Of a stretch of 64,000 nt of DNA, positions 14,551-34,492 are shown piece after piece. The notes under the pieces are model-generated. The model saw only the letters and a list, made by a program, of their open reading frames with translations, was not told where the DNA came from and made no database searches. The stretch is taken from positions 32,001 through 96,000 of the forward strand of contig CAVYBU010000007.1 in assembly GCA_963766735.1 (NCBI GenBank), read 5' to 3'. The number at the start of each line of letters is the position of its first letter. The first letter of the stretch is position 1. The position numbers and the translations under genes are program-made. The DNA comes from an uncultured Chloroflexia bacterium (GTDB lineage: Bacteria > Chloroflexota > Limnocylindria > Limnocylindrales > CSP1-4).

Positions 14551-14573
14551 ACTTGTTCCCGACGGGGATCAGG

Positions 14574-16318
14574 CTACGGCAGCTCGTTCACCCGGTCGGT
14601 GCTCGGCGGAGCAACCGGGCTGTAGGCCGCGAAGAAGTTGACAAAGGCCTGGAGGTCGTTGCCACCATCGAGGCGCGGCGCGGTGATGGTGCCGAACGTG
14701 ATGAAGTTGTCCCCACCGTCGGCGAGGAAGTTGTTGACCGTCACGTTGTAGGTGGCTCCCGGGTCGAACGCCACGCCGTTGAGCATCACGTTGCTCACCG
14801 TGACCGACGTGCAGTTGCCGGCGACGATTGTCGTGGCAAGGTCGTAGGTGAGGCCCTCGGACACGCCGAGGTGCAGGAACGGGTCGGCTCGAGCCGATCG
14901 GCTGGCACTGCTCCTCGAGCACCGAGATGATCTGGGCTCCGGTCATCGGGAAGGTGACCAGGGTGTTGCCGAACGGCTGGAACGTGAACGCCTCACCGTA
15001 GGTGACGACGCCATCGCCCTCGGCGGCGGCTGCGACTGCGGCGTACGTGAGATCAGACCGGAGCCCACCGGGGTTCATGAGAGCGAGCTGGGCCCCGCTG
15101 GCCGAGGTCGACCACAGCTGGGCATCGGCGACCAGGTTGCCGATCGCGCGACTCGACGCCACGGTCCGAGTCCGTCGGGTTCCGCCGCGAATGATCGTCG
15201 CGGTGACGTTGCCGATCGGGGTGCTTCCGGCCTGCGTCGTACAGCGGCTGCCACTTGGCGATGATCGCGGTGAGCGCCGGGTCCGGCGTCAGGGCTGTCT
15301 GGTCGACGACGTGGTTGGCCGCCTTGCTGAGGTCGCGGCGCACATCGTGCGTCCGCTTGTCCAGCACGAGGTTGACCTCGGACACGACTCGGCCGTAGGA
15401 GTAGGCGCTGGTGACGATGCGCGGCTTGCCTGCCGAATTGTCAAGCTTGCAGTTGTAGGGCAGGTGGGTGTGACCGGTCAGGATGGCGTCGATCTCGGGA
15501 TCGAGCGCGTCGTTGATCGCGACGATCGGACCGGAGATGCCGACACAGGCGTCAACGTCGCCCGGAGGCGGCGTCTGTGAGCCGCCCTCGTGCAGCAGCA
15601 CGACGATCGCCTCGACGCCCTGCTTCTTGAGGATCGGGACGAGCTTGTTCGCAGTCTCGGCCTCGTCGAGGAAGTCCCAGCCCTGGATGCCGGCGGCGGC
15701 GACGAGGGTGTCGGTGGCCTCGAGCGTCATGCCGATGAAGCCGACCTTGACGTTGTTGAACTGCTTGATCCAGTAGGGCGGCAGGGGCGTCTTGCCGGTC
15801 GTCTCGTTGACGACGTTGGCGGCCAGCCACTGGAACTCGGCACCGGCGTACGGGGCATCGGGGAAGTAGCAGCCGTCCACGGGGTGGCAGCCGCCGTTCT
15901 GCATCCGCAGGAGCTCCGTGACGCCTTCGTCGAACTCGTGGTTGCCCACGCCGGAGACATCGAGGTGCATCGCGTTGAGCGACTCGACGGACGGCTCATC
16001 GTGGAACAGCCCGGAGAACGCAGGCGAGCCACCGATCAGGTCTCCCGCGGCAACGGTCAGGCTGAACTTGTGGCCGCTGCGCAGCTTGGCGAGCTCCGCC
16101 GCAAGGTACTCGGACCCACCGGCGGGAGTCCCTTCGATTGTCCCGGGCGTGCTCGCCTCGAGGTGGCCGTGGTAGTCGTTGAAGGCCAGGAGCTGGACAG
16201 GGATGAGCTGGCCGGGCGGGTCCGGCTGCTTGCCAACCGCGCTGGCGGCGGTGGTCGCCACCAGCATCATCGCGGCAAGGACTGCCAGCAATCGTCGGGA
16301 TCCGGGGGTGATGGGCAC
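14574..16318 (-). CDS. Secreted bifunctional metallophosphatase/5'-nucleotidase, frameshifted (about four single-base indels)
   Basis: Signal peptide; FNDYHG, AGDLIG, GNHEFD, LLHEG, GHTH; C-terminal NPGGLR, QPFGN and NNFLADGGD lie in different frames with shifts near 15231, 15178, 15148 and 14882. Confidence 0.85.
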
Positions 16319-16471: not shown

Positions 16472-18817
<2,346 letters not shown>

Positions 18818-18859
18818 CGGGCCACGGTAGCAGCGCAGCCGGCGAGTCGTGGATATTAG

Positions 18860-18875
18860 TTGCGCAGATACGCAA
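18860..18875. promoter_or_regulatory. Palindromic operator candidate TTGCG-N6-CGCAA
   Basis: ttgcgcagatacgcaa in an AT-richer patch between the divergent uvrA-like and osmC-like genes. Confidence 0.4.
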
Positions 18876-18953
18876 GTAGATGGTAGCCTTCAGATGTCGC
18901 CGGTGCCCATCCTGGGATCGCCATCCCGCGCCGGCCGCAAGAGGGTTCACTTC

Positions 18954-19352
18954 GTGGAGATGATCATCGACTTCCCGGGCGGCTCGCGCGTCGACGCGCA
19001 TTTCGGCGGGTTCTCCGTGCCGACGGACCAGCCGCCGTCGGGTGGGGGTGAGGGTTCGGCCCCGACGCCATTCGCGACCTTCCTGTCGACGATCGGGACA
19101 TGTGCCGGCATCTACGTGCTGGGCTTCTGCCGCCAGCGTGGCATCTCGACGGACGGCATCCGCCTCGTCCAGCGGATGCAGACCGATCCGACGACCCGCC
19201 TGGTGAGCCAGGTGCAGGTCACGATCGAGCTGCCCGAGGGGTTCCCGGCGAAGTACGCGGAGGCGGTCGTGCGCGCCGCGGAGCAGTGCGCGGTCAAGAA
19301 GCACTTCGAGAACCCTCCCGTGATCCACGTGGGAAGCACCCTCGCGGGCTGA
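18954..19352 (+). CDS. OsmC family protein
   Basis: TDQP..GGEGSAPTPF..GTCAG and EQCAVKK with the conserved Cys pair. Confidence 0.85.
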   Translation: MEMIIDFPGGSRVDAHFGGFSVPTDQPPSGGGEGSAPTPFATFLSTIGTCAGIYVLGFCRQRGISTDGIRLVQRMQTDPTTRLVSQVQVTIELPEGFPAKYAEAVVRAAEQCAVKKHFENPPVIHVGSTLAG

Positions 19353-19418
19353 CTTCTCGTGGCTCAAGGTGCATTGACTCCCGTATACAGGGCGCCCTGC
19401 ACCGTGTAGGGTTGCGCA

Positions 19419-20669
19419 ATGGCGTCCCTTCCCACGCGCATCGACACCGCCGTGATCGGTGCCGGCCAGGCCGGGCTCACGATGAGCTGGCACCTGCAGC
19501 AGGCCGGTCGTGACCACCTCCTGCTGGATGCACGCGCCACCCTTGGTGGCGGCTGGCAGGACCGGTGGGACCAGTTCAGGCTCGTCGGGCCGAACTGGAC
19601 GGCATCGTTCCCTGGCGCGCCATATGACGGGAGCGACCCGGATGGGTTCATGGCGCGCGACGAGATCATCGGTCGCGTTGCGCGGTACGCAGAGACGATC
19701 GGCGCGCCGGTGGTCCTCGATACGCGCGTGCACGGGCTTCGAGGCGCGCAGGACGGATTTGCGCTCGAGACCTCCCAGGGTCCGGTCCGCGCCCGCGAGG
19801 TCGTGGTCGCCACTGGCGGCTTCCACGCACCAAGCGTCCCCGCCCTCGCAAGCGGGCTCTCGCCGCGGGTCCTGAGCCTGCATGCGCACGACTATCGACG
19901 AGCCGCCGACCTTCCTCCCGGCGCGGTGCTCGTCGTCGGCTCGGGGCAGACGGGGACGCAGCTGGTCGAGGAGCTGCGGTCGGCAGGCCGGGAGGTCTAC
20001 CTGTGCGTTGGTGGAACTGGTCGTGTTCCGCGCCGGTACCGCGGCAGGGACATCTTCTTCTGGTTGTCGCAGCTGGCCGAGCGCGGGAGGGACGTGGGGG
20101 TCACCCTCCCGTCGGTTGACACCCTGCAGGACCCACGGCGACGGCTGGCCGGCAACCCTCAGTTGTCGGGCCACGGTGGGGGCCACGAGGTCGATCTCCA
20201 CCAGCTCGGTCGGGATGGGACCACGCTGCTGGGCAGGCTCCAGGCGGTAGATGGCGAGCGCATCAGCCTTGGCGCGGGTCTGGCAGCAAGCCTCGCCTCC
20301 GCTGACCGGTTCTTCGGCGAGCGGTTCCAGGGTCCGATCGATGCCTTCATTGCGGCAGCCGGCATGGATTGCCCGCCGGCCGATCCGCCCGTCATCACGG
20401 ACTCCGTGGCACCGGCCATCGCCGAGCTCGCCCTCGATGAGGCGGGCATCTCGACGGTCCTGTGGGCGACCGGGTATCGCCAGGACTACAGCTGGATCGA
20501 GCCTCCGGTCACGGACGAGCTGGGCTTCCCGCGGCAGAGCCTCGGAGCCTCCGACGTGCCTGGGCTCTACTTCATCGGGTCGCTCTGGCAGCACGACCAG
20601 GTGTCCGCCACCCTGGTCGGGCTCCCGCGTGATGCGCGCACGCTGGCGAGCCGGATGGGGCTCGGCTAG
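19419..20669 (+). CDS. Flavin-containing monooxygenase family oxidoreductase
   Basis: VIGAGQAG (FAD), VVATGG, VVGSGQTG (NAD(P)H), LWATGY. Confidence 0.85.
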   Translation: MASLPTRIDTAVIGAGQAGLTMSWHLQQAGRDHLLLDARATLGGGWQDRWDQFRLVGPNWTASFPGAPYDGSDPDGFMARDEIIGRVARYAETIGAPVVLDTRVHGLRGAQDGFALETSQGPVRAREVVVATGGFHAPSVPALASGLSPRVLSLHAHDYRRAADLPPGAVLVVGSGQTGTQLVEELRSAGREVYLCVGGTGRVPRRYRGRDIFFWLSQLAERGRDVGVTLPSVDTLQDPRRRLAGNPQLSGHGGGHEVDLHQLGRDGTTLLGRLQAVDGERISLGAGLAASLASADRFFGERFQGPIDAFIAAAGMDCPPADPPVITDSVAPAIAELALDEAGISTVLWATGYRQDYSWIEPPVTDELGFPRQSLGASDVPGLYFIGSLWQHDQVSATLVGLPRDARTLASRMGLG

Positions 20670-20831
20670 ACCCGACATGGTGCCGCAAGGCACGAGCGAT
20701 TGGCAGCCCGGCGCTCGGAGCGGCACCGTGGTCGCGTATCCTGCTCATCTGACCATCGTTGCTCCCTTCATGCGGCGTGGCCATCGTCCACCTGCGCCAA
20801 GGTCGGAACGCACCTCGAGGAGGAACCTGGG

Positions 20832-23606
20832 ATGACATCAGCGCTCGAGCAGCCAGGCCCGGGTGCCGCGGCGAAGGCCGCTGCGGCCTCTCCGGTGTGG
20901 CACGCGCTCAGCCCCGACGAGGCTCTTGCCGCGCAGGGCGTCTCCGTCGATGCCGGCCTCACGTCGGCCGAGGCCGACTCCCGGCGCGCGACGTACGGCA
21001 GGAACACGTTCGCCGAAGCGAAGAAGGCGTCGACGTGGCAGCGGTTCACCCGCCAGTACGCGGACCCGATGCAGATCGTGCTCGTGGTCGCGGGCGTCAT
21101 CTGCCTGTTCCTGCCCGGCCAGTTCTACACCGGCGTCTTTCTGATCCTGCTCACCCTGTTCAACGCATGGATGGCGATGAACCAGGAGGGCAAGGCAGAG
21201 GCGAGCGCCTCGGCCCTTCAGGGGATGATGGTCGTCAAGGCCAAGGTGCGGCGCAACGGCGATCTAGTCGAGATCCCGATGGAGGAGCTCGTCCCGGGCG
21301 ACATCGTCAACATCGAGGCAGGCGACCTCGTCCCCGCCGACGCGCGCATCCTCACCGCGGCGACCCTCGAGATCGACGAGTCCGCGCTCACCGGCGAGAG
21401 CGTCCCCACCCCCAAGCAGGTCGACTCGGTCGCTGCCGACGCGGCTCTTGGGGACCGCGTGGACCTGGCCTTCATGAACACCCAGGTCACCCGTGGGGCC
21501 GGCACCATCCTGATCATCACCACCGGGATGGCGACCGAGGTGGGCCACATCAGCGGCATGCTCCAGTCAACTACGGTCGAGAAGACACCGCTGACCAAGC
21601 AGCTGGACGTGCTCACGAACCAGATCCTCGTCATCGCCGGCGTCGCGCTTGCGGTCTCGGTCATCCTGGGCCTGTACCGCAAGGTCGAGCTCGATGAGCT
21701 GTTCCTCAGCGCGGTGGCGTTCGCGGTCGCGGCCATCCCGACGGCGCTGCCCGCCGTCGTCACCGCCATCCTGGCGAAGGGCTCGCAGATGCTCGCCGAC
21801 GCGGGCGCCATCATGAAGCGCCTGCGCTCCGTGGAGACCCTGGGCTCGACGTCCGCCATCAACTCGGACAAGACCGGGACCCTCACCCTCAACCAGATGA
21901 CCGCCACCCAGATGGCGATCGTCGGCCGGCGCTACGCGATCAGCGGCGAGGGCTACTCGACGACCGGGCAGATCGCCCACACCGGCGGCCAGCCCGACGT
22001 GCCGCTCGAGCAGTACCTCCTGCCGATGGTCCTGTGCGCAGACGCTGAGGTCAGGGATGGGGGACTGGTGGGTGACCCGACCGAGGGAGCCCTGGTCGTC
22101 CTTGCCGCCAAGGGCGGCGTGGATCCCGCGCTGACGCGAGAGCAGTACCCGCGCGTCGCAACCCTGCCGTTCGACGCTGCGTACAAGATGATGGCCACGT
22201 TCCACCGCATGACGGACGCGAGCGGACGAGACGTCATCCGCTGCTACATCAAGGGAGCCCCGGACCAGCTACTCGCACGCGCGACGAGCGCGCACGGCCC
22301 GGACGGCACCGAAGTGCCCGTTGACCAGCTGCGCGACGCCTACCTGGCCGAGAACGATCGCCTGGGCACGATGGGCCTGCGCGTCATGGCGACGGGCCAG
22401 AAGGACTTCGACCCGGCAACGTTCGACCCGGACGCAGACCTGCTGCCGGCGCTTGACGGCCTCACGCTGCTGGCGATCGTCGGCATCGTCGACCCGCCGC
22501 GTCCGGCTGCGAAGGACGCCATCACCCAGGCGAAGGCGGCCGGGATCCAGGTCCGCATGATCACCGGCGACCACGCGGTCACCGCCGAGGCCATCGCCCG
22601 CCAGCTGGGCATCGAGGGCCGCGCGATCACCGGTGCCGAATTCGGGGCGATGAGCGACGAGGAGGCGATCCGCCAGATCGACGGCATCGGCGTTATCGCC
22701 CGCGTCTCGCCTGAGCACAAGGTCCACCTCGTCGACATCCTGCGCAAGAAGGGTCACGTCGTCGCTATGACCGGCGACGGCGTGAACGATGCCCCAGCGC
22801 TCAAGAGGGCCGACATCGGCATCGCGATGGGGATCACAGGGACGGAAGTCTCCAAGCAGGCCGCCGTCATGATCCTCACGGACGACAACTTCGGGACGAT
22901 TGTCAAGGCCGTCGGGCTCGGCCGCTCCGTGTACGACAACCTGATGCGGTTCATTCGCTTCCAGATGGCGGGCCTGTTCGGGTTCATCGCCACGTTCCTC
23001 GGCGCGTCGCTGTTCAACATCCTGGGCGGGATCCCATTCCTGCCGCTCCAGACGCTCTGGATCAACTTCACCGTCACGACCATCCAGGCGATCGGCCTCG
23101 GCTACGGAAAGCCTCGGGAAGGCCTCATGAAGGAGCCGCCCAGGCCCAAGGAGCAGCAGATCATGCCGCGCCGCCTGACGACCTGGCTCGTGTTCGTCGG
23201 ACTGGTGATGGGTGTCGGCACCCTCGGGGTGCTGTGGTGGGCCAACGACGCCTACGGCGAGGTCGTCGCGCGGACGATGGGTCTCACCGCCTTCTGCCTC
23301 TACCGCCTGTTCTCCTCGCTGGAGAGCGCGGATGAGAGCGAGTCCCTGTTCGGTGGGTCGATCCTCTCGAACCGGCCGCTTCTCATGGGAACGGGCATTT
23401 CCGTCCTGGCGATCATCCTCGCGACCGAGTTCGGCTTCTTCCAGCGTCTGCTGGGCACGACTTCCATGACCGTTGAGCAGTGGGCCGTGTGCATCGTCGT
23501 CCCGCTGTCGCTTATCGTGGTCGAGGAGGTGCGCAAGCTCCTCAAGGTGCGGACCGTTGAGCAACCGGCCACCACACAGGCAGCTTCGGCCGCCGCCGCG
23601 GCATAG
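20832..23606 (+). CDS. P-type ATPase of P2A-like architecture with atypical membrane site
   Basis: TGES, DKTGTLT, KGAP, DPPR, MITGD, GDGVND all intact; TM4 reads IPTALP. Confidence 0.92.
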   Translation: MTSALEQPGPGAAAKAAAASPVWHALSPDEALAAQGVSVDAGLTSAEADSRRATYGRNTFAEAKKASTWQRFTRQYADPMQIVLVVAGVICLFLPGQFYTGVFLILLTLFNAWMAMNQEGKAEASASALQGMMVVKAKVRRNGDLVEIPMEELVPGDIVNIEAGDLVPADARILTAATLEIDESALTGESVPTPKQVDSVAADAALGDRVDLAFMNTQVTRGAGTILIITTGMATEVGHISGMLQSTTVEKTPLTKQLDVLTNQILVIAGVALAVSVILGLYRKVELDELFLSAVAFAVAAIPTALPAVVTAILAKGSQMLADAGAIMKRLRSVETLGSTSAINSDKTGTLTLNQMTATQMAIVGRRYAISGEGYSTTGQIAHTGGQPDVPLEQYLLPMVLCADAEVRDGGLVGDPTEGALVVLAAKGGVDPALTREQYPRVATLPFDAAYKMMATFHRMTDASGRDVIRCYIKGAPDQLLARATSAHGPDGTEVPVDQLRDAYLAENDRLGTMGLRVMATGQKDFDPATFDPDADLLPALDGLTLLAIVGIVDPPRPAAKDAITQAKAAGIQVRMITGDHAVTAEAIARQLGIEGRAITGAEFGAMSDEEAIRQIDGIGVIARVSPEHKVHLVDILRKKGHVVAMTGDGVNDAPALKRADIGIAMGITGTEVSKQAAVMILTDDNFGTIVKAVGLGRSVYDNLMRFIRFQMAGLFGFIATFLGASLFNILGGIPFLPLQTLWINFTVTTIQAIGLGYGKPREGLMKEPPRPKEQQIMPRRLTTWLVFVGLVMGVGTLGVLWWANDAYGEVVARTMGLTAFCLYRLFSSLESADESESLFGGSILSNRPLLMGTGISVLAIILATEFGFFQRLLGTTSMTVEQWAVCIVVPLSLIVVEEVRKLLKVRTVEQPATTQAASAAAAA

Positions 23607-23632: not shown

Positions 23633-24508
23633 GTGGCTAAGAAGAAGAACAAGAAGGACAACATGACCAAGCCCGAGGAGGCGAGCCATGACGTGGGGGG
23701 TGTTGAGGCTCCGACCACTCCTGCCGATCCCCCGGCGAAGATGAAGACCAAGGACTACGAGCTCGAGATGGCCCGTCTCCACGGCGAGCTCGTCGCGATG
23801 CAGGAGTGGGTCAAGGCGACCGGCGCCAAGGTCTTGATCGTGTTCGAAGGCCGGGATACCGCGGGCAAGGGGGGCGTGATCAAGCGGATCACCGAGCGAG
23901 TCAGCCCCCGCGTGTTCAAGGTGGTGGCCCTGTCCGCTCCGACGGACCGCGAGAAGTCGCAGATGTACATCCAGCGGTACCTGCCGCACTTCCCGGCCGC
24001 GGGCGAGGTCGTGATCTTCGATCGGAGCTGGTACAACCGTGCCGGCGTCGAGCGGGTCATGGGCTTCTGCACCCCGGAGCAGACCGAGGGCTTCCTCGAG
24101 CAGACCCCGGCTGTCGAGAAGGCCATGGTGGAATCGGGCATCATCCTGATCAAGTACTGGCTGGAGGTCAGCGCGGACGAGCAGACGCGCCGTCTGGAGG
24201 GCCGTATCCACGACCCGCGGAAGGTGTGGAAGCTGACCGACATGGACCTCAAGTCCTACAGCCGCTGGACGGACTACTCGCGGGCGCGGGATGCCATGTT
24301 CGCGGCGACGGACACGCCCTGGGCACCCTGGTACATCGCACGCACGGACGACAAGAAGAAGGGCCGGCTCAACATCATCACCCACCTGCTGAGCCAGGTG
24401 CCCTATGAGCCGCTCGAAACCAAGGACATCACGTTGCCGAAGCGCAGGGTGAGCGCCAGGTCCGCCGAGTCGAAGCTGCCCCTCAAGTACATCCCGACGC
24501 CGTTCTGA
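23633..24508 (+). CDS. ppk2: Polyphosphate kinase 2
   Basis: FEGRDTAGKGG Walker A, FDRSWYNR, RARDAMF lid, DDKKKGRLN. Confidence 0.95.
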   Translation: MAKKKNKKDNMTKPEEASHDVGGVEAPTTPADPPAKMKTKDYELEMARLHGELVAMQEWVKATGAKVLIVFEGRDTAGKGGVIKRITERVSPRVFKVVALSAPTDREKSQMYIQRYLPHFPAAGEVVIFDRSWYNRAGVERVMGFCTPEQTEGFLEQTPAVEKAMVESGIILIKYWLEVSADEQTRRLEGRIHDPRKVWKLTDMDLKSYSRWTDYSRARDAMFAATDTPWAPWYIARTDDKKKGRLNIITHLLSQVPYEPLETKDITLPKRRVSARSAESKLPLKYIPTPF

Positions 24509-25083: not shown

Positions 25084-27858
25084 ATGACCCAACGGACGAA
25101 CGTGGCTCTCGTGGTGAACGGCACCCCCCGTAGCCTCGACGTCCCCCCGGGGTGGCGGCTCCTGGACCTGCTCCGTGATGGTCTCGGCCTGGTCGGGAGC
25201 AAGGAAGGATGCGACGACGGCACGTGCGGGACGTGCGTCGTCATGGTCGACGGGAAGGCGCTGCGTGCCTGCCGGACGTCTGCGACGAAGGCGGCGGGAA
25301 GCCAGGTCCTGACCATCGAGGGGCTCGGGAGCGTCGAACGTCCGCACGCACTGCAAGAGGCGTTCGTGGCGGCCGATGCGGTCCAGTGCGGGTTCTGCAC
25401 CCCCGGCATGATCATGGCTGCCGCGGCGCTGCTCGAGCGCAATCCCCATCCCAGCCGGGGCGAGATCGGCCAGTGGCTCGGCAGCAACCTCTGTCGCTGC
25501 ACCGGGTACGAGAGCATCGTGGACGCGATCGAGTGGGCAGCCAACGGGCAACAGGGCTCGCCGCGCGCCTGGCCTGCGCAGGCGGATGGCGCGACGCAGC
25601 CGCCGGAGGGGGCCGGTCATCGGCGCGTGGATGCGCTGGACAAGGCCACCGGCCGCGCGCTCTACGCGGCGGATCTGGCGGTCGATGGGATGCTGCATGC
25701 CCGGGCTCTGCGCAGCCCGCACGCGCACGCGGAGATCATCCGTATCGATACGGAGCGCGCGCGACAGCTGTCTGGCGTCTTGGCGATCCTGACCGCTTCG
25801 GACGTCCCCGAGAACAGCTACGGACGCAAGGTGAAGGACGAGCCGGTCCTTGCGGATGCCAGGGTCCGGAAGGCGGGCGACCCGGTCGCTTTGGTCGTGG
25901 CGACCTCGCCCGAGGTGGCGGCCTCGGCGCTCGCGGTGATCGAGGTGGAATACCGACAGCTCCCCGCCGTGTTCACGCCTGATGAGGCACTCGCGGACGG
26001 CGCACCGGCGATCCATCCAGGGGGCAACCTGCTGGCGGAGAACTGGCTGCGGTCGGGCAACATCGAGGACGGATTCGGGCGCTCCGATGTCGTGGTGGAG
26101 AGCACCTACACGACCCCCTGGAATGAGCACGCCTACCTCGAGCCGGAAGCGGCGCTCGCCTACTGGGAGGAAGACACGCTCGTCGTCCGGACGGCGACGC
26201 AGTACTCGCACTACCAGCGGGCCGAGATCGCGAGGACGCTTGGCCTGCCAGTCGAGCGGGTCCGTGTGCTTCCCACCGTCGTCGGGGGCGCATTCGGAGG
26301 CAAGACCGAGATCTCGTGCCAGTGCCTTGCTGCGCTGGCCACGTACCGCACAGGCCGGCCGGTCAGGATCGTCTACAGCCGGGCAGAGTCGTTTGCGACG
26401 ACGACGAAGCGGCATCCGTACCGGATCCGATGCCGGAGCGGCGCTACCCGGGACGGAAGCCTCACGGCCCTCCAGGTGGACATGGTCGCCGACACCGGCG
26501 CGTACGCCTCGTTCGGCCCCGGGCTGATGGTCAAGACGTTCGCCTCGGCGGCGGGTCCGTACCGCTGGCCGCACATCGAGCTTCACGGACGGGTGGCGTT
26601 CACCAACAACCCGACGGCCGGTTGCATGCGCGGCCCAGGCACAACGCAGGTCGCCTTCGCCGTTGAATCGCAGATGGACCAGCTCGCCGAGAAGCTGGGC
26701 ATGGATCCCCTCGCGTTCCGGGAGAAGAACGGGCTGCGGCACGGCGACAGGCTCCTGTCCGGACAGGTACTCGAGCGCGACCCGGCCTACGGCTCAACGC
26801 TCGAGGCGGTCCGGCCGCACTGGCTGGAGGCGAGGGCGAGGTGCGCCGAGCCGGGGGCCGGCGATGGCCCGGTGCGGCGAGGGGTCGGGGTGGCCTCGGT
26901 CTGGTACGGCATCGGTGGTGGTGGCGGCGGCCCCGTTCCCGGCCAGGACCCCGCGCTCACGGTGGGGCGCGGGCCAGGGCGAGCAGCGATCGACCTTGGC
27001 GCTGATGGTTCGATCACGCTGAGGACCGGCGCGCTCGACCTCGGACAGGGGTCCTCCACCGCCCTGGGCATCATTGCCGCGGAGGAGATCGGCGTCCCGT
27101 TCGATCAGGTGGACGTCCTGACCGGCGACACGGCCACGTGCCCGGACGCCGGCCCCGCGGTGGGCAGCCGGGTGACGTTCTTTGTCGGCAACGCGGTGCG
27201 GAATGCGGCAGCCGACTTCCGGGAGGCGATCCTGGGCACCGCAAGCGGGCTGCTTGATCGTCCGTTCGGGGAGCTCGAGGTCCACGGTGCGCAGGTCAGG
27301 AGCCGCGGAGGTCCCGAGGTTGCGATACCGCTGTCCGGTATCGCCCGGGCGAGGGCGGAGGTGGGACGCACCAACACGTTCGAGGGCTACTTCGACGCCG
27401 ACGTCCCCGCCTACGACCCCAGCCTTGGGCAGGGCGAGCCCTACGCGATGTACGTCAGCGGGACGCAGATGGCGGAGGTCGAGGTCGACACGAGGACGGG
27501 CGCGGTGCGGGTCCTGCGCGTGGTCGCCGCCCACGACGTGGGGAGGGCGGTCTTTCCCGAGGGCGTCGTCGGCCAGATCGAAGGCGGGATCGCCATGGGC
27601 CTGGGGTTCGCCCTCACCGAGGAGTTCATTCCCGGGGCGACCACCGGCTTCAAGCAGTACCGGGTGCCTCGCACGAGGGACATGCCCGAGATGGTCACGC
27701 TGCTCGTCGGTGGGGCCGGGGGGCCGCCCGAGCTGGAGGCCAAGGGCGTGGCCGAGTGCTCGAACATGGTCGTCGCTCCGGCCATCACGGGGGCGATCGC
27801 CCACGCGACGGGAGTCCGGGTCGTGGATCTGCCGGTGAGGCTCGCGCGCCGCGACTGA
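25084..27858 (+). CDS. Xanthine dehydrogenase/aldehyde oxidoreductase family molybdoenzyme with fused 2x[2Fe-2S] domain
   Basis: GCDDGTCGTC, QCGFCTPG, NLCRCTGY; HAYLEP, GGAFGGK, MRGPG, GQG, GQIEGG, AKGVAE. Confidence 0.92.
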   Translation: MTQRTNVALVVNGTPRSLDVPPGWRLLDLLRDGLGLVGSKEGCDDGTCGTCVVMVDGKALRACRTSATKAAGSQVLTIEGLGSVERPHALQEAFVAADAVQCGFCTPGMIMAAAALLERNPHPSRGEIGQWLGSNLCRCTGYESIVDAIEWAANGQQGSPRAWPAQADGATQPPEGAGHRRVDALDKATGRALYAADLAVDGMLHARALRSPHAHAEIIRIDTERARQLSGVLAILTASDVPENSYGRKVKDEPVLADARVRKAGDPVALVVATSPEVAASALAVIEVEYRQLPAVFTPDEALADGAPAIHPGGNLLAENWLRSGNIEDGFGRSDVVVESTYTTPWNEHAYLEPEAALAYWEEDTLVVRTATQYSHYQRAEIARTLGLPVERVRVLPTVVGGAFGGKTEISCQCLAALATYRTGRPVRIVYSRAESFATTTKRHPYRIRCRSGATRDGSLTALQVDMVADTGAYASFGPGLMVKTFASAAGPYRWPHIELHGRVAFTNNPTAGCMRGPGTTQVAFAVESQMDQLAEKLGMDPLAFREKNGLRHGDRLLSGQVLERDPAYGSTLEAVRPHWLEARARCAEPGAGDGPVRRGVGVASVWYGIGGGGGGPVPGQDPALTVGRGPGRAAIDLGADGSITLRTGALDLGQGSSTALGIIAAEEIGVPFDQVDVLTGDTATCPDAGPAVGSRVTFFVGNAVRNAAADFREAILGTASGLLDRPFGELEVHGAQVRSRGGPEVAIPLSGIARARAEVGRTNTFEGYFDADVPAYDPSLGQGEPYAMYVSGTQMAEVEVDTRTGAVRVLRVVAAHDVGRAVFPEGVVGQIEGGIAMGLGFALTEEFIPGATTGFKQYRVPRTRDMPEMVTLLVGGAGGPPELEAKGVAECSNMVVAPAITGAIAHATGVRVVDLPVRLARRD

Positions 27859-27937
27859 CGCGACGAGGCGCAGACCCGCGGTCCGCCACGGAGCGTTCGT
27901 ATCGCGAGTTCCACGCAGTCGGTACCCTTGACCGGTC

Positions 27938-29614
<1,677 letters not shown>

Positions 29615-30179: not shown

Positions 30180-32369
30180 TCAGGCGGCGGTGACGTCCTC
30201 ACCGGCCGGCGTCCGTTCCGGCATCGGCAGGGGTGCGGCGCTCCCGTCCTTGCCGAAGCGCTGGTCGAGGTGCCTCTCCGCCCAGCGACGGATCTGGCGG
30301 TAGACGGCCGGAGCCCCGACCAGCTCCTCGTCGAGCTCCCAGTCCGCCGGGTGCATGATGACCGGCAGGGTCTGCGGGCCGCCCAGGCCGCCGTGGGAGC
30401 CGATGAGCTCCTCGAATGCTGCGACCTCCTCGAACTCGGGGTCGTACAGGCTGATCACGGAGAGGTCGGGCACGTAGTCCATCCCGTCGAGACGCAGGAG
30501 TGCCTCGCGCGACCGGCCGCCGTACTGGGCGACCGGGTCCACGCCCTCGACGCGGTTCTCCTCCAGGTAGTTGATGCCCTCCCGACCGATCACGATGGAG
30601 CCGTGCTCCTCGGACTTGATGAGCATCGCCCCGATGCCCTGGTGCCGGGCCAGCGTGTCGACGAGACCCGGGTGCGCCTCGGCGAGCTGCTCCAGCGTCA
30701 CCCGTCCGGGCATCTGCGGGAAGTAGACGAGGCCCAGGTTGCCCGACGCGATGGCGATCAGGTCTGGGCGCTCCGCGGGTGCCTCACCGGCCACCGCCGG
30801 CGCCTCACGCTTCTCCTCTCCGGAGGGCCTGAGCTCCACGACACCATCCGAGGTCTGTGAGCGCAGGGCCGTCCGGGCAACCCTCCCGGAGACCCCCTTC
30901 GTGCTCGTCAGGTCGGACAGGAAGGCGTTCGTCGGCCCCCACTCCTCGACGCGGGCGGTTTCCTCCTCCATCTTCGTATCGCCACGCATCAGCCCCTTGA
31001 CCACGTCGCCGAGCGTCTTGCCGTAGCGCTGGAGGAACGTCGCGCCGAGGGTCTGGCCGTGGTCGGACACGATGATGAAACGGTACGGGCGAGGCGCGGA
31101 CGCCGCGGCCTTCTCCAGCGTCGCGATCGCCCGATCCACGCCGTCGAGGGCGTCGAGCGTTTCGGCCCGCTCGGGCCCGCTGTGGTGCGCGATCTCGTCG
31201 TAGTCGGTGTAGTCGACGTAGATGACCGGCGCGCCGCGGTACATCTCCTCGATGACCAGGGATGTCGACAGGTCGCGGAGGCCCACGTTGGTGGCGGCCC
31301 GCGCGATGGGGTAGGGCCGGCCGCGGTGCATCCGGGGGACGATGCCGGCCCGGACCTGGCGGCGCGCCTGGATGTTCTCCTTGATGATCTCGGCCACGAA
31401 GCGGACGATCGTGCCGAGGTAGTTGTACGGGCTGGCGAAGAACGTCATGAAGGTCTGGCTCTGGCCCAGGCCCTGTCCCTTGTCCTTGATCGTGGCCATG
31501 GTGATGTACGAGCGGACCGCATCGCCGGAGAAGAGGTTGCCGACGCTGGCCCCGTCGTTCGAGCACAGCCCCTCGCCATTCGAGATCCGGGTCGCAACCT
31601 CCATTGCGTCAGCCGGATGGTTGGCGACCATGACCCGGCCGAGCTCCTTCTCGTACCAGCGGAAAGCCGGGATACCGTCGTTGTTGCCGTGAAGGATCCC
31701 GGCCTGGCTGGCCGGGGTGGTGGGCGGCAGGAGCGCCTCCCAGCTCGAGAGGCTGTACCGGCCGGAGCGAACCCAGTTGGACAGGTGCGGGACGCGGCCG
31801 GCCCGGATCTGGCGGACCAGGATCGGGTGGGCGAGACCGTCGATCTGGATGACGACGAGGCCTGGCTTGTCAGTCCGGACCACGCCCTCCCGGCGGGCGG
31901 CTACCTGCTGCATGAGGACCGCGAAGTACGAGTCGTCGCTGGAGATCGAGAAGACCGCGACGAGGATGGTGTTCACCGTCGCGTAGACGAACGACGCGAT
32001 CAGCGCGGCCAGGATGCCGTTCACCTGCAGATCGCTCACGAAGACCGGCAGGAGCAGGAAGGATGCGACCTGGAAGATGAGCGTCGCGATGACGACGGCA
32101 ATGACCGAGATCCCGGCGAACAGGGCCAGGAACAGCGGCCGGACCAGGAGGTTCAGCAGCCCGAGCACGATCGCCGCGAGCGTCAGGGTGCCGATGATCG
32201 GGGCGCCGGAGACCAGATTGACGCCCGGCATGATCACGACCACGCCGGCCAGTGACACGACGCTGATCACGAGCGTGACGAGCAGGCGGCGAATGCGAGC
32301 GCCGCGGGTCGGCTGCCAGGTCCGCATGACCTGGATCTGGAGCCTGTAGAAGTCGATCACCCCGCGCAT
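30180..32369 (-). CDS. Phage-holin-family (4TM) domain fused to an alkaline phosphatase/phosphodiesterase domain
   Basis: N-terminal LGLLNLLVRP holin-like TMs; IQIDGL, TTPASQAGILHG, DYDEIAHH, VSDHG, GSHGG metal-site motifs. Confidence 0.8.
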   Translation of the reverse strand: MRGVIDFYRLQIQVMRTWQPTRGARIRRLLVTLVISVVSLAGVVVIMPGVNLVSGAPIIGTLTLAAIVLGLLNLLVRPLFLALFAGISVIAVVIATLIFQVASFLLLPVFVSDLQVNGILAALIASFVYATVNTILVAVFSISSDDSYFAVLMQQVAARREGVVRTDKPGLVVIQIDGLAHPILVRQIRAGRVPHLSNWVRSGRYSLSSWEALLPPTTPASQAGILHGNNDGIPAFRWYEKELGRVMVANHPADAMEVATRISNGEGLCSNDGASVGNLFSGDAVRSYITMATIKDKGQGLGQSQTFMTFFASPYNYLGTIVRFVAEIIKENIQARRQVRAGIVPRMHRGRPYPIARAATNVGLRDLSTSLVIEEMYRGAPVIYVDYTDYDEIAHHSGPERAETLDALDGVDRAIATLEKAAASAPRPYRFIIVSDHGQTLGATFLQRYGKTLGDVVKGLMRGDTKMEEETARVEEWGPTNAFLSDLTSTKGVSGRVARTALRSQTSDGVVELRPSGEEKREAPAVAGEAPAERPDLIAIASGNLGLVYFPQMPGRVTLEQLAEAHPGLVDTLARHQGIGAMLIKSEEHGSIVIGREGINYLEENRVEGVDPVAQYGGRSREALLRLDGMDYVPDLSVISLYDPEFEEVAAFEELIGSHGGLGGPQTLPVIMHPADWELDEELVGAPAVYRQIRRWAERHLDQRFGKDGSAAPLPMPERTPAGEDVTAA

Positions 32370-32409
32370 CTCGCCTCCCTCGTCCTCTGTATACCCACGC
32401 TGGTTCGGC

Positions 32410-33900
32410 TCAGGAGCCGGCAGGCGTCGAGACCCGACCCGCGTCGATGGCCTCTCGGTAGGCGGCATAGTCCTTCGCGTTGATGTCTGCGTACGTCTCG
32501 GCGAAGTCCGCGATCGCACCATCGAACGTGTCGCCCGTGCCGATGTAGGCGGCGATCGCAGCCGCATCGCCCGTGCTGGCGTGTGCACGAGCCAGCGACC
32601 AGCCGCAGATGCCGCCATAGAAGCTCATGCCCGGGGGCTGCAGGACCGTGGTGTCGACGGATCCCTTCATGTCCCACAGCTGGCGGAGGTAGAAGTCACG
32701 TCCGCCCGGGCCCGTCGTCCAGCCGAGGAAGATGTCCGACGTGGCCTGCATGAGCTGCTGCCCCACGACGACCCTCTGGCCGTGGTGGTCGTGCAGGCTC
32801 GTTTCGAGGTATGGCTCCATGACCGAGGCCGTGGCCTCCTTGGCCTGGAGGATGAGCGGGTCGTTCTCGTCACGACCCTCGAGGACCAGGATGAAGCAGC
32901 GGGTCCCGACGCTGCCCACGCCCACGACCTTGAGGGCAAGGTCCACGAAACGGTACCGCTCGAGGAAGGCGCGCCGGTTCTCGGGCATCGTGGCCCGGTA
33001 GTCGGTGAAGACCTTCTCGAGGGCTCCCGAGTCACCCTCCACGTGCATGACGAAGGGCGGGTCCTCGAGGATGACGCGGCGTCCGTCGGTCACCGCGGTG
33101 AGCGACTCGAAGGCCCGCATGCCGTCACGACGGCGCGCCTTGGAGAAGATGGCCTCAAGCCGTGCGCGGCGCGCGGCTCCGGTCCGTCCCTGCAGCAGGC
33201 CGGACGCCTCACCCGCCTCCCGGATATCGCGGTCGGTGATCTGCGTGTACCAGACGTCGAGCAGGCGCATGCCCGCGTAGCGAGCCATCCACTGGCGGTA
33301 GGCGCGGACGGTGGCCATCGTGGCCGCCCGGTTCTGCGCGGCGTAGAACCCGTTGGCACGGCCGGCGATCACGATGCTCGCGGCCAGGCGCTTGAGGTCC
33401 CACTCCCAGGGACCGGGCAACGTCTCGTCGAAGTCGTTGGTGTCGAAGACCAGCGTCCGCTCGGGCGAGGCGAAGAGCCCGAAGTTGGAGAGATGGGCGT
33501 CGCCGCTCGCCTGCACGATGATGTTCGAACGCGGTGTTCCCGAGAGGTCGAACGCCATCACCGCGGGTGTGCCCCGGTAGTAGGCAAAGGCAGACGCGGC
33601 CATGCGCTCGTGGCGCAGCGGCACGAGGTCCTGGAGCCTGTCCAGCTCCTGGGCCTCAAGGATCGCGATGGGGTCACGCCCGGGTGCCGGCTCGAACGCC
33701 GCGTGGCTGGGCCGGGGAACCTCCTTCCGGCGTGCCTTGCCGGCGGCGGCGCGCTGCGCGGGATCGACCCACGGCCTTGCCGTCCAGGAGGGACCCTGAA
33801 CCGGAAGGTCGGCCTGCCAGGCGGCGTCGTACTCCGCCGCCATCGCCTTGTCCGGGACGGTCTTCCGCGCCCGTCGCACCGACCTGGTCGGCTCGGTCAT
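32410..33900 (-). CDS. DUF2252 family protein (kinase-like)
   Basis: RHERMAASAFAYYRG, GDAHLSNFG, FDTNDFDET, KVVGVGSVGTR, LQAKEA, YLRQLWDMK. Confidence 0.9.
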   Translation of the reverse strand: MTEPTRSVRRARKTVPDKAMAAEYDAAWQADLPVQGPSWTARPWVDPAQRAAAGKARRKEVPRPSHAAFEPAPGRDPIAILEAQELDRLQDLVPLRHERMAASAFAYYRGTPAVMAFDLSGTPRSNIIVQASGDAHLSNFGLFASPERTLVFDTNDFDETLPGPWEWDLKRLAASIVIAGRANGFYAAQNRAATMATVRAYRQWMARYAGMRLLDVWYTQITDRDIREAGEASGLLQGRTGAARRARLEAIFSKARRRDGMRAFESLTAVTDGRRVILEDPPFVMHVEGDSGALEKVFTDYRATMPENRRAFLERYRFVDLALKVVGVGSVGTRCFILVLEGRDENDPLILQAKEATASVMEPYLETSLHDHHGQRVVVGQQLMQATSDIFLGWTTGPGGRDFYLRQLWDMKGSVDTTVLQPPGMSFYGGICGWSLARAHASTGDAAAIAAYIGTGDTFDGAIADFAETYADINAKDYAAYREAIDAGRVSTPAGS

Positions 33901-34126
33901 CGTGCTGCTCCCTGTGCATCCGGAATGCCCCCCGATCAGGCCGAATCTTGGGCGGCGCGGGGTGCGGTCACGAAGTCTAGCCGACGAACGCACGCGGGGC
34001 CGTCCGGGCGCCATTGCACGTGGACATCGCCGGCGTCGGTCGAGGTTCACGGTGCACCGACGGCCGGCGCGGGATCGGCGGTCCGCGCTACCGTTGGCGC
34101 CTGGAGAAGCACACGGGAGACGCGCA

Positions 34127-34492
34127 TTGGATGGGTCCGCGGCAGTCGTCATCACGCTGGCACTGGTGTTCTACTCGATCGGCGTCTGGAGCGAGCGGAT
34201 CCAGGGACGGCTCCGACCGTGGCACCTGGCGTTCTTCTGGGCCGGGCTGGTGTGCGACACGATCGGCACCGGGATGATGCTGGACTTTGCCGGCGGGCTC
34301 ACCGCGGACATCCACGGCATCTCCGGCGTCCTCGCCATCGTTCTCATGGCGATCCATGCGATCTGGGCGACGATCGTTCTGGCGCGGCGGGACGAGCGGC
34401 TGATCCTCACCTTCCACCGGTTCAGCCTGGTCGTCTGGGCAATCTGGCTGATCCCGTACTTCAGCCCGATGTTCTTCGCGCTGGGCGGTTGA
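34127..34492 (+). CDS. HsmA-like (TIGR03987-type) membrane protein
   Basis: ITLALVFYSIGVWSE..WHLAFFWAGLVCDTIGT..HGISG..HAIWA..FHRFS; TTG start after GGAG assumed. Confidence 0.7.
   Translation: MDGSAAVVITLALVFYSIGVWSERIQGRLRPWHLAFFWAGLVCDTIGTGMMLDFAGGLTADIHGISGVLAIVLMAIHAIWATIVLARRDERLILTFHRFSLVVWAIWLIPYFSPMFFALGG

Follow-up and report, generated by a model that had tools for sequence, protein, structure and literature searches.

What might a P-type ATPase transport when its membrane core contains neither Asp nor Glu? This question is raised by a 64,000-nucleotide stretch of DNA from an uncultured Chloroflexia bacterium (contig CAVYBU010000007.1, positions 32,001 to 96,000; hereafter, the window), which encodes a P-type ATPase of the P2A fold immediately upstream of a gene for polyphosphate kinase 2 (ppk2; Table 1). 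In this ATPase and its relatives, we observed intact machinery in the A, N and P domains, a membrane core free of carboxylates, purifying selection, membership of a distinct clade, and a repeated pairing with genes of polyphosphate (polyP) metabolism or of the arginine deiminase (arc) pathway. Based on these features, we tentatively favour a pump of a monovalent cation, and the alternatives are weighed below where the evidence bears on them.

Table 1. Positions of the ATPase gene, its motifs and the adjoining kinase gene in the window.
Feature	Position	Strand	Remarks
Shine-Dalgarno-like GAGGAGG	20817..20823	+	8 nt ahead of the ATPase ATG; from sequence
P2A-fold P-type ATPase	20832..23606	+	924 aa, 10 membrane helices, membrane core without Asp/Glu
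A-domain TGES dephosphorylation loop	21390..21401	+	residues 187-190, intact
M4 IPTALP	21735..21752	+	residues 302-307; Thr304 in place of SERCA Glu309
DKTGT phosphorylation site	21867..21881	+	residues 346-350, Asp346
GDGVND P-domain motif	22773..22790	+	residues 648-653, intact
M5 FQMAGLFGF	22959..22985	+	residues 710-718; Gln711 retained from SPCA-type RFQ; Leu715 and Phe718 fill site I
M6 WINFTVTT	23058..23081	+	residues 743-750; Asn745 (=Asn796) retained; Val748 (=Thr799); Thr749 (=Asp800)
M8 FCLYRLF	23292..23312	+	residues 821-827; Arg825 at SERCA Glu908 = LMCA1 Arg795; one subclade only
Polyphosphate kinase 2 (ppk2)	23633..24508	+	26 bp after the ATPase stop; alternative start ATG 23663

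The open reading frame (ORF) of the ATPase contains no internal stop codons, and its product carries every motif expected of the P-type superfamily (DKTGT, TGES, GDGxND and an intact KGAP at residues 474-477). A sequence-only reading of the window had reported these four motifs together with altered motifs in TM4, TM5, TM6 and TM8, and all of them lie in the 924-aa ORF where it had put them. The Pfam set is that of a type II P-type ATPase, and TIGR01494 was the sole NCBIfam P-type model passed (268 bits, cut-off 62). The best specific model, the PMR1-type TIGR01522, gave 574.8 (cut-off 798.3), and TIGR01116 gave 517 (cut-off 703.4); because a sister PEGL pump also fell below the TIGR01522 cut-off (754.7), this equivalog test is a weak one. 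The best sequence matches in the PDB were Listeria LMCA1 and human SPCA1 (E ~1e-146 to 1e-144). An AlphaFold2 model built from a 103-row alignment (mean predicted local distance difference test score 86.8; ten membrane helices) best matched SPCA1, LMCA1 and SERCA (Foldseek TM <=0.86), and a VIA comparison with 7yam gave Z 40.6 and a root-mean-square deviation of 4.5 over 847 aligned residues.

Which parts of the membrane site have changed? The register was set by HMMER alignments to LMCA1 and SPCA1, in which the LMCA1 segments PEAL, FAGNLGA, INLVNDSLP and ILART pair with PTAL, MAGLFGF, INFTVTTIQ and CLYRL, respectively. These alignments bear out the substitutions that had been proposed by eye. 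With the SERCA Ca2+-site residues as given in PMC6879984, E309 is replaced by T304, N768 by L715, E771 by F718, T799 by V748, D800 by T749 and E908 by R825, and N796 is retained as N745. The Asp and Glu residues of the membrane region are all at helix ends or in loops, and R825 is the sole charged residue in the model among the core positions as defined in this analysis, in agreement with the claim that acidic ligands are missing there. Thr100 stands where LMCA1 and SPCA1 have the M2 Glu/Asp, a position that we take to be SERCA E90. Canonical Ca2+ binding is very unlikely, as the sequence-only reading had held.

The site is nonetheless maintained. In an alignment of 120 close homologues (the query and relatives 82-97% identical to it, the best 120 of 7999 matches), PTALP, Q711, N745, Q752, R825, S829 and E831 were kept in all 120, and position 749 was Asn in 113 and Thr in 7, so that the T749 of the window is the minority state. 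Against five orthologues, the membrane part gave a rough ratio of nonsynonymous to synonymous substitution rates of 0.24-0.26, and the rest of the protein one of 0.10-0.15. Because these residues are invariant and the ratio is low, decay of the gene can be dismissed; it is under purifying selection.

Not all of the changes are new. LMCA1 has Arg795 at the Glu908 position and Ala691 at the Glu771 position, and pumps one Ca2+ via site II, which is termed universally conserved among Ca2+-ATPases (bioRxiv 10.1101/2020.06.23.166462). CtpF, in which Asp800 is replaced by Ala, is nonetheless a reported Ca2+ exporter (PMC6879984), and we found Ala at the D800 position in 16 of 30 actinobacterial pumps outside the clade described below. 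Therefore, the Arg, the loss of site I, or the loss of Asp800 alone is not unusual, and one-site ancestors of the SPCA/LMCA1 type already account for part of the loss of site I (N768/E771/T799/E908); it is the joint loss of Glu309 and Asp800 that is new. The database annotation, in which JGI names the homologues Ca2+-transporting ATPase, would have the protein still pump Ca2+ or Mn2+. The nearest solved structures (SPCA1 and LMCA1) and the activity reported for CtpF speak for that assignment, but the core offers no carboxylate, the TIGR01522 and TIGR01116 cut-offs are not reached, and two canonical Glu/Asp pumps are already encoded in the source genome, and we consider continued Ca2+ or Mn2+ transport highly improbable.

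Is the window ATPase an isolated oddity? In a 147-row FastTree phylogeny, 99 rows formed one clade with support 100, and its sister was a PEGL group within bacterial RFQL...NIIMDGPP (SPCA/PMR1-like) pumps (nesting support 99-100); this and the following trees hold no eukaryotic, CtpE or CtpH/I sequences. When nine site columns were removed from a 57-row tree, 31 members still lay on one side of a branch (Shimodaira-Hasegawa-like approximate likelihood ratio test, 100). With cytosolic columns only, a quick tree left the 31 members unresolved, and a tree constrained to the clade was 27 log-units better and was not rejected in the approximately unbiased (AU) test (p-AU 0.83). The suggestion of the sequence-only reading that this protein represents an uncharacterised P-type subclass thus finds support, in that the clade is distinct and apparently uncharacterised. 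A single group of all Glu-less P2 pumps was rejected (AU p = 4e-5 after adding five outside Glu-less pumps). Loci L025, L035, L037, L060 and L068 encode P2 pumps without the M4 Glu (PSGL, PAGL, PSAL, PAAL) that keep Glu771 and Asp800, and are independent losses of the M4 Glu outside the clade.

The clade is widespread. A motif scan of GTDB genomes found at least 118 stretches, 80 of them with flanks (7 of these 80 being non-members), in Actinomycetota, Chloroflexota, Methanosarcina sp. T3 and another methanogen. Prevalences based on the pattern are lower bounds: at least 20 of the 151 genomes sampled in the class to which the window belongs, at least 28 of the 201 Actinomycetes genomes sampled, with 29 loci between them (centre genome included), and at least 5 matches in the 71 genomes of the family of Methanosarcina sp. 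T3. Two of the latter are PTGL, and these patchy methanogen copies may reflect horizontal transfer. The methanogen copies L041, L023 and L196 lie directly after a ppk2 of the TIGR03709 type and cluster with sequences from Chloroflexota. When 50%-representatives were searched with M5-M10, the best 150 of 10051 matches formed a diverse series grading into SPCA-like PEGL pumps. The source genome itself contains a clade paralogue with 64% identity (L001:10106-12868; G000:C6), which has PTGL, Gln at 749 and Asn at 825. It sits among genes for a sulfatase, TMEM175, DUF1269/DUF6325, AI-2E, SulP-PASTA and holin-ABC1 proteins, without a nearby ppk2.

Across the clade, the catalytic residues hardly vary (D346 in 99/99, G188 in 93/93, D653 in 97/99), and the typical M4 motif is PT[GA][LM]P. 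Thr304 was counted in 90/99 rows, a figure inflated by a first pattern that excluded Glu; among 28 members found with an acid-allowing pattern, position 304 was Thr in 20, Glu in 6 and Asp in 2. L715 (96/97), Q711 (93/97), T100 (86/90) and N745 (77/97) are common, whereas position 749 is divided among Thr (22), Asp (22), Gln (21), Asn (14) and Ala (6), and position 825 among Asn (23), His (21), Thr (20), Arg (14) and Ser (11; n=97 for both). A core without Asp or Glu was found in 57 of 89 clade rows, versus none of 36 PEGL-type pumps. These counts weaken one argument of the sequence-only reading, namely that the pump carries a positive charge in place of its acidic ligands and that its substrate might therefore be an anion. 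The same Arg occurs in a Ca2+ pump, LMCA1, and within the clade it is confined to 14 of 97 members; the paralogue in the same genome has Asn instead, Asp occupies the D800 position in 22 of 97, and 8 of the 28 members of the acid-allowing sample have Glu or Asp at 304. Moreover, positions 304 and 749 accept neutral or acidic residues and basic ones almost never, which suits a cation or a hydrogen-bonded ligand better than an anion.

We considered whether such variability could mean that nothing is transported. At 60-70% cytosolic identity, the identity of M6/M8 is 0.51/0.41 in the clade versus 0.80/0.80 in PEGL pumps; at 80-90% cytosolic identity (0.84), M4 (0.90) and M6 (0.86) are conserved like the cytosolic part. 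This combination of drift between subfamilies and conservation within them suggests that the site was rebuilt in several ways and then held. The phosphorylating ATPase might instead be uncoupled from transport or loosely coupled to it, and would then serve as a sensor, as a motor that drives a partner protein, or as a regulated sink for ATP. The conserved catalytic core beside M5, M6 and M8 helices that drift much faster than in Ca2+ pumps, the presence of both ppk2 and arc neighbours with every site type, and the precedent of uncoupled turnover in KdpB D583A (PMC12247778) are consistent with this idea. It seems to us quite unlikely, given the conservation of the site helices within subfamilies, the invariance of the polar core residues in the 120 close homologues, and the failure of any single partner gene to recur.

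What, then, do the neighbouring genes indicate? The strongest clue to the role of the ATPase is the ppk2 located 26 bp downstream, of which the sequence-only reading made no use. From this spacing on the same strand, the two genes probably form one operon. The kinase is of the class-I type (TIGR03707, 347.9 bits against a cut-off of 301.8). Two co-folding runs of pump and PPK2 scored 0.00, which has no bearing either way on contact. Neighbours were counted by tblastn within 5.6 kb of 98 clade loci, a sample in which L028 and L157 are one locus counted twice and some flanks are cut by contig ends. A ppk2 was found at 36 of these loci (31 within 400 bp on the same strand), Ppx/GppA at 9, any polyP-related gene at 44, and an arc operon (at least two of arcA/B/C) at 22. 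Either polyP or arc genes occur at 61 of the 98 loci, and both at 5. The 26 pumps that served as controls (14 canonical ones from the window's family, 5 SPCA-like pumps on plasmids and 7 outsiders caught by the pattern) had no such neighbours. In a taxon-matched comparison within the Actinomycetes (60 of 64 pattern matches, one unparsable), polyP genes adjoined 14, arc genes 3, and either 16 of 28 clade loci, versus none of 31 other P2 pumps. The loci are related, so Fisher values overstate the significance. The arc operons comprise arcA, arcB and arcC with YfcC- and NhaC/ArcD-like carriers, and often end directly at the pump.

Two kinds of PPK2 occur as partners, TIGR03707 and TIGR03709. Among 25 class-I pump/PPK2 pairs, the nearest neighbour was common to both proteins in 12, and their distances showed no overall correlation (Mantel rho 0.09, a value reached in 194 of 2000 permutations). 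The pairing thus appears to re-form repeatedly, with co-inheritance over short range and exchange of partners over long range, which points to function rather than to hitch-hiking. Deep co-inheritance of pump and PPK2 was unsupported by the same Mantel result. The association is one-way, in that 3 of 28 ppk2 matches (E<=1e-60, class sample) adjoin a pump found by the pattern. In L152:6088-12822, two clade paralogues of the PTGL and PEAL types flank one ppk2 of the TIGR03709 type, all on the same strand. Other recurring neighbours are MFS carriers, MalT-like regulators, SulP carriers (13 of 98 loci), DUF6325 and DUF7144. In M. mazei, a ppk2 that may or may not adjoin such a pump showed no response to phosphate starvation (PMC6864096).

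How could these partners be connected with the altered site? In KdpB, K+ is bound at the Ca2/Na2 site by M4 carbonyls together with Thr265 and Asn624 (PMC12247778). Thr304 of the window ATPase precedes the phosphorylated Asp by 42 residues, as does Thr265 of KdpB, and in both proteins the sole side-chain ligands of site II are a Thr equivalent to Glu309 and an Asn equivalent to Asn796. This likeness is convergent, and from the shared ligand set we infer a monovalent cation. Loss of carboxylates favours monovalent over divalent ions, K+ is the counter-ion of polyP, and NH4+ is a product of arginine breakdown. The PPK2 and arc partners both regenerate ATP without respiration, and pumps with Glu304 adjoin ppk2 in 5 of 6 cases, as do both members with Asp304. 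We therefore offer, as a possibility that we hold tentatively, that the ATPase is a single-subunit pump of a monovalent cation, likeliest K+ or NH4+, with a neutral, KdpB-like Thr/Asn site. It would be an active pump derived from a one-site SPCA/PMR1-like Ca2+ pump that no longer moves Ca2+. Its pocket would lie at the unwound part of M4 and consist of main-chain carbonyls, Thr304 and Asn745, with Asn, Thr, Gln or Asp at 749, and would bind K+ or NH4+ most likely and Na+ less likely. Such a pump might work when respiration is off, on ATP remade from polyP by PPK2 or from carbamoyl phosphate by carbamate kinase, and could keep cation, charge and pH in balance while polyP gives up its K+ counter-ion or arginine breakdown releases NH4+.

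Several observations weigh against this proposal. KdpB requires Asp583 and Lys586 of M5 for coupling (PMC12247778), and the ATPase has an equivalent of neither; no KdpA or other partner recurs beside the clade pumps. In a 31-row actinobacterial subgroup, M6 is almost wholly hydrophobic and Asn745 is present in just 13 of 30 rows and lost in 17, yet ppk2 occurs at 10 of 31 loci, which means that a Thr/Asn ion site is not the whole story. The fast drift of M6 and M8 also fits relaxed or absent transport. Ppx, present at 9 loci, makes no ATP, so the supply of ATP cannot explain all of the neighbours, and 37 of the 98 loci are without polyP or arc genes within 5.6 kb. Finally, ppk2 and arc are part of a wider neighbourhood with SulP, MFS, MalT-like, DUF6325 and DUF7144 genes, and the link may be one of co-regulation.

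The same neighbours can be read in terms of phosphate. An ATP-driven pump of inorganic phosphate (Pi), or of a neutral metal-phosphate or oxyanion, might serve both polyP turnover and the Pi-consuming catabolic ornithine carbamoyltransferase; if so, the clade would be a new family and the first P-type ATPases to move an anion, with the Arg825 subclade as its most specialised form. Phosphate is the sole metabolite common to PPK2, Ppx, CYTH-like and CHAD proteins and ornithine carbamoyltransferase, all of which occur beside the pump, SulP anion carriers recur at the 13 loci mentioned above, and in the window subclade the site is lined by hydrogen-bond donors (T304, Q711, N745, Q752, R825, S829) that are invariant in 120 of 120 homologues. 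We regard phosphate as an unlikely substrate, however, because Arg825 is confined to 14 of 97 members and matches Arg795 of LMCA1, the pumps with Glu304 or Asp304 are themselves ppk2 neighbours, Asp749 is present in 22 of 97, and no Pit, Pst or PhoU was seen among the annotated neighbours, which are part of the whole set.

The arc genes suggest a further candidate, since arginine deiminase is a classic acid-resistance system. The ATPase might be a proton (hydronium) pump that converged on the P3A design (AHA2, Pma1, methanogen P3A) and uses ATP from fermentation or from polyP to build proton-motive force or to resist acid. Like P3A pumps, the window ATPase has an M4 without Glu and retains an Asn in M2 (N111 in 89/90 clade rows), and M6 Asp is present in 22 of 97 members, including 11 of 17 in the arc-operon-rich group. 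An Asp in M6 and an Arg in M5 are needed by P3A pumps (PMC10654040). The window ATPase has Thr749 in place of the former (AHA2 Asp684) and no Arg in the M5 core, the M6 Asp is missing from 75 of the 97 members, TIGR01647 gave 386.7 (cut-off 615.5), and the P3A-like rows L017 and L061 fall outside the clade, all of which make proton transport improbable in our estimation.

The hydrophobic M6 of the actinobacterial subgroup could also be that of a bacterial flippase-like transporter of a lipid, an amphiphile or a neutral solute. P4 flippases likewise have no acid at the M4 kink, where their motif is PISL, and some neighbours are lipid-related (DAGK at 4 loci, LPG synthase, MMPL, VTT). These are far rarer than ppk2 or arc, the M4 of the window ATPase is PTAL, TIGR01652 gave a very low 62.6 (cut-off 431.25), the fold and the tree place the pump with P2A, and no flippase beta-subunit gene was seen near the ATPase. 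P4 flippases are, in addition, described as eukaryote-only, and we think it quite unlikely that the pump moves a lipid, an amphiphile or a neutral solute.

Where does the window ATPase stand among described systems? It shares with P2A pumps (SPCA1/PMR1, LMCA1; PDB 8iwu, 7yam, 6zhf; SERCA1a) the fold, the ten helices, the A/N/P motifs, the M5 RFQ and Asn796, with LMCA1 also the Arg at the Glu908 position, and by descent it is nested among bacterial SPCA-like pumps. It differs from them in site II (Thr304/Asn745/Thr749 for Glu309/Asn796/Asp800), in having Thr for the M2 Glu/Asp and Leu and Phe filling site I, and in its ppk2, ppx and arc neighbours, which canonical P2A pumps lack in our samples (0/26 and 0/31). 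From KdpB (P1A), with which it shares no homology at the level of the subfamily, it is set apart by its TIGR01497 score (131.6; cut-off 527.9), its ten helices and its M5; no kdpFAC genes were seen nearby, the ATPase being flanked in the window by a flavoprotein gene and ppk2. P3B MgtA has the PEML M4 and the M6 Asp that are absent here (30% identity to E. coli MgtA; TIGR01524 349.5, cut-off 610.75). Mycobacterial CtpE (P6) and CtpF, which are actinobacterial P2-like pumps, resemble it in their altered M6 (Asp to Ile in CtpE, Asp800 to Ala in CtpF), but CtpE, CtpF and CtpH/I all keep PEGL or PEGM in M4, and CtpF-like pumps fall outside the clade and have no polyP or arc neighbours. CtpE, with 791 aa, a PEGL M4 and Ile for the M6 Asp, is distinguished by this description, no CtpE being in the tree.

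Palmgren 2023 (PMC10654040) names P6 and the isolated CtpH/I, and expects more prokaryotic P-type families; the clade is absent from its sections 9, 11, 12, 14 and 15. Among the uncharacterised prokaryotic families FUPA 23-32 of TCDB, FUPA23 is, at second hand, CtpE and FUPA24 CtpH/I (further sources on known P-type systems: PMC3573892, PMC7065118, PMC5615198). In the open-access literature, we found nothing on the clade or on a link of P-type ATPases with ppk2 or arc. Judging from sequences, and set against the families named above, the clade is apparently an undescribed, conserved P-type subfamily with a rebuilt acid-free site. It is a large candidate for one of the families expected in prokaryotes, yet its members are annotated as Ca2+ pumps. 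Its natural series of sites (Thr, Glu or Asp in M4; Asp, Asn, Gln, Thr or hydrophobic residues in M6) should inform how P-type pumps couple ATP to transport without carboxylates, and its links with PPK2 and with arginine deiminase suggest that polyP-based and fermentative survival involves a primary transport step that has gone unrecognised. Harmless cultured carriers, namely Nocardioides terrigena, Agromyces cerinus, Kribbella and Methanosarcina sp. T3, allow direct testing.

Some minor observations concern the surroundings of the pump. An ESM Atlas query with residues 690-910 returned generic PF00689 clusters only, four runs in a metatranscriptome look-up (contigs only, mostly from relatives) share 6-16% of words with the query, and a promoter and terminator scan found none, which equals the chance expectation. 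At several loci (L004:8730-10253, L058:4357-5919, L158:8942-10471, L160-L162), Ppx/GppA carries an extra N-terminal domain of ~190 aa that begins with IPRWEWRTFG and stands alone in L043; it has no Pfam match and is CYTH-like by eye only. For an unannotated protein of ~260 aa upstream of the pump (L006:9654-10433, L004:10256-11014), the ESM Atlas lead is CYTH (0.92; PF01928 on 14% of members). SPCA-like PEGL pumps of actinobacterial plasmids (L124:4178-10787, L176:5872-14571) adjoin genes for V-type ATPase subunits (F, A, B or D, B, A). In the window, the probable operon is flanked at 16472-20669 and 25084-29614 by genes for a UvrA-like ABC protein, an OsmC-like protein, an MSMEG_0569-like flavoprotein, a fused 2Fe-2S/molybdopterin oxidoreductase and an EttA-like ABC protein, none of which is among the recurring neighbours. 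A 5'-nucleotidase-like metallophosphoesterase at 14574-16318 (-) extends over three frames (15053-16318, 14569-15162, 14574-14864), apparently through frameshifts or sequencing errors. At 30180-34155 (-), a Holin-4TMS/phosphodiesterase fusion and a DUF2252 gene both recur near the pump in other genomes and belong to its wider gene neighbourhood.

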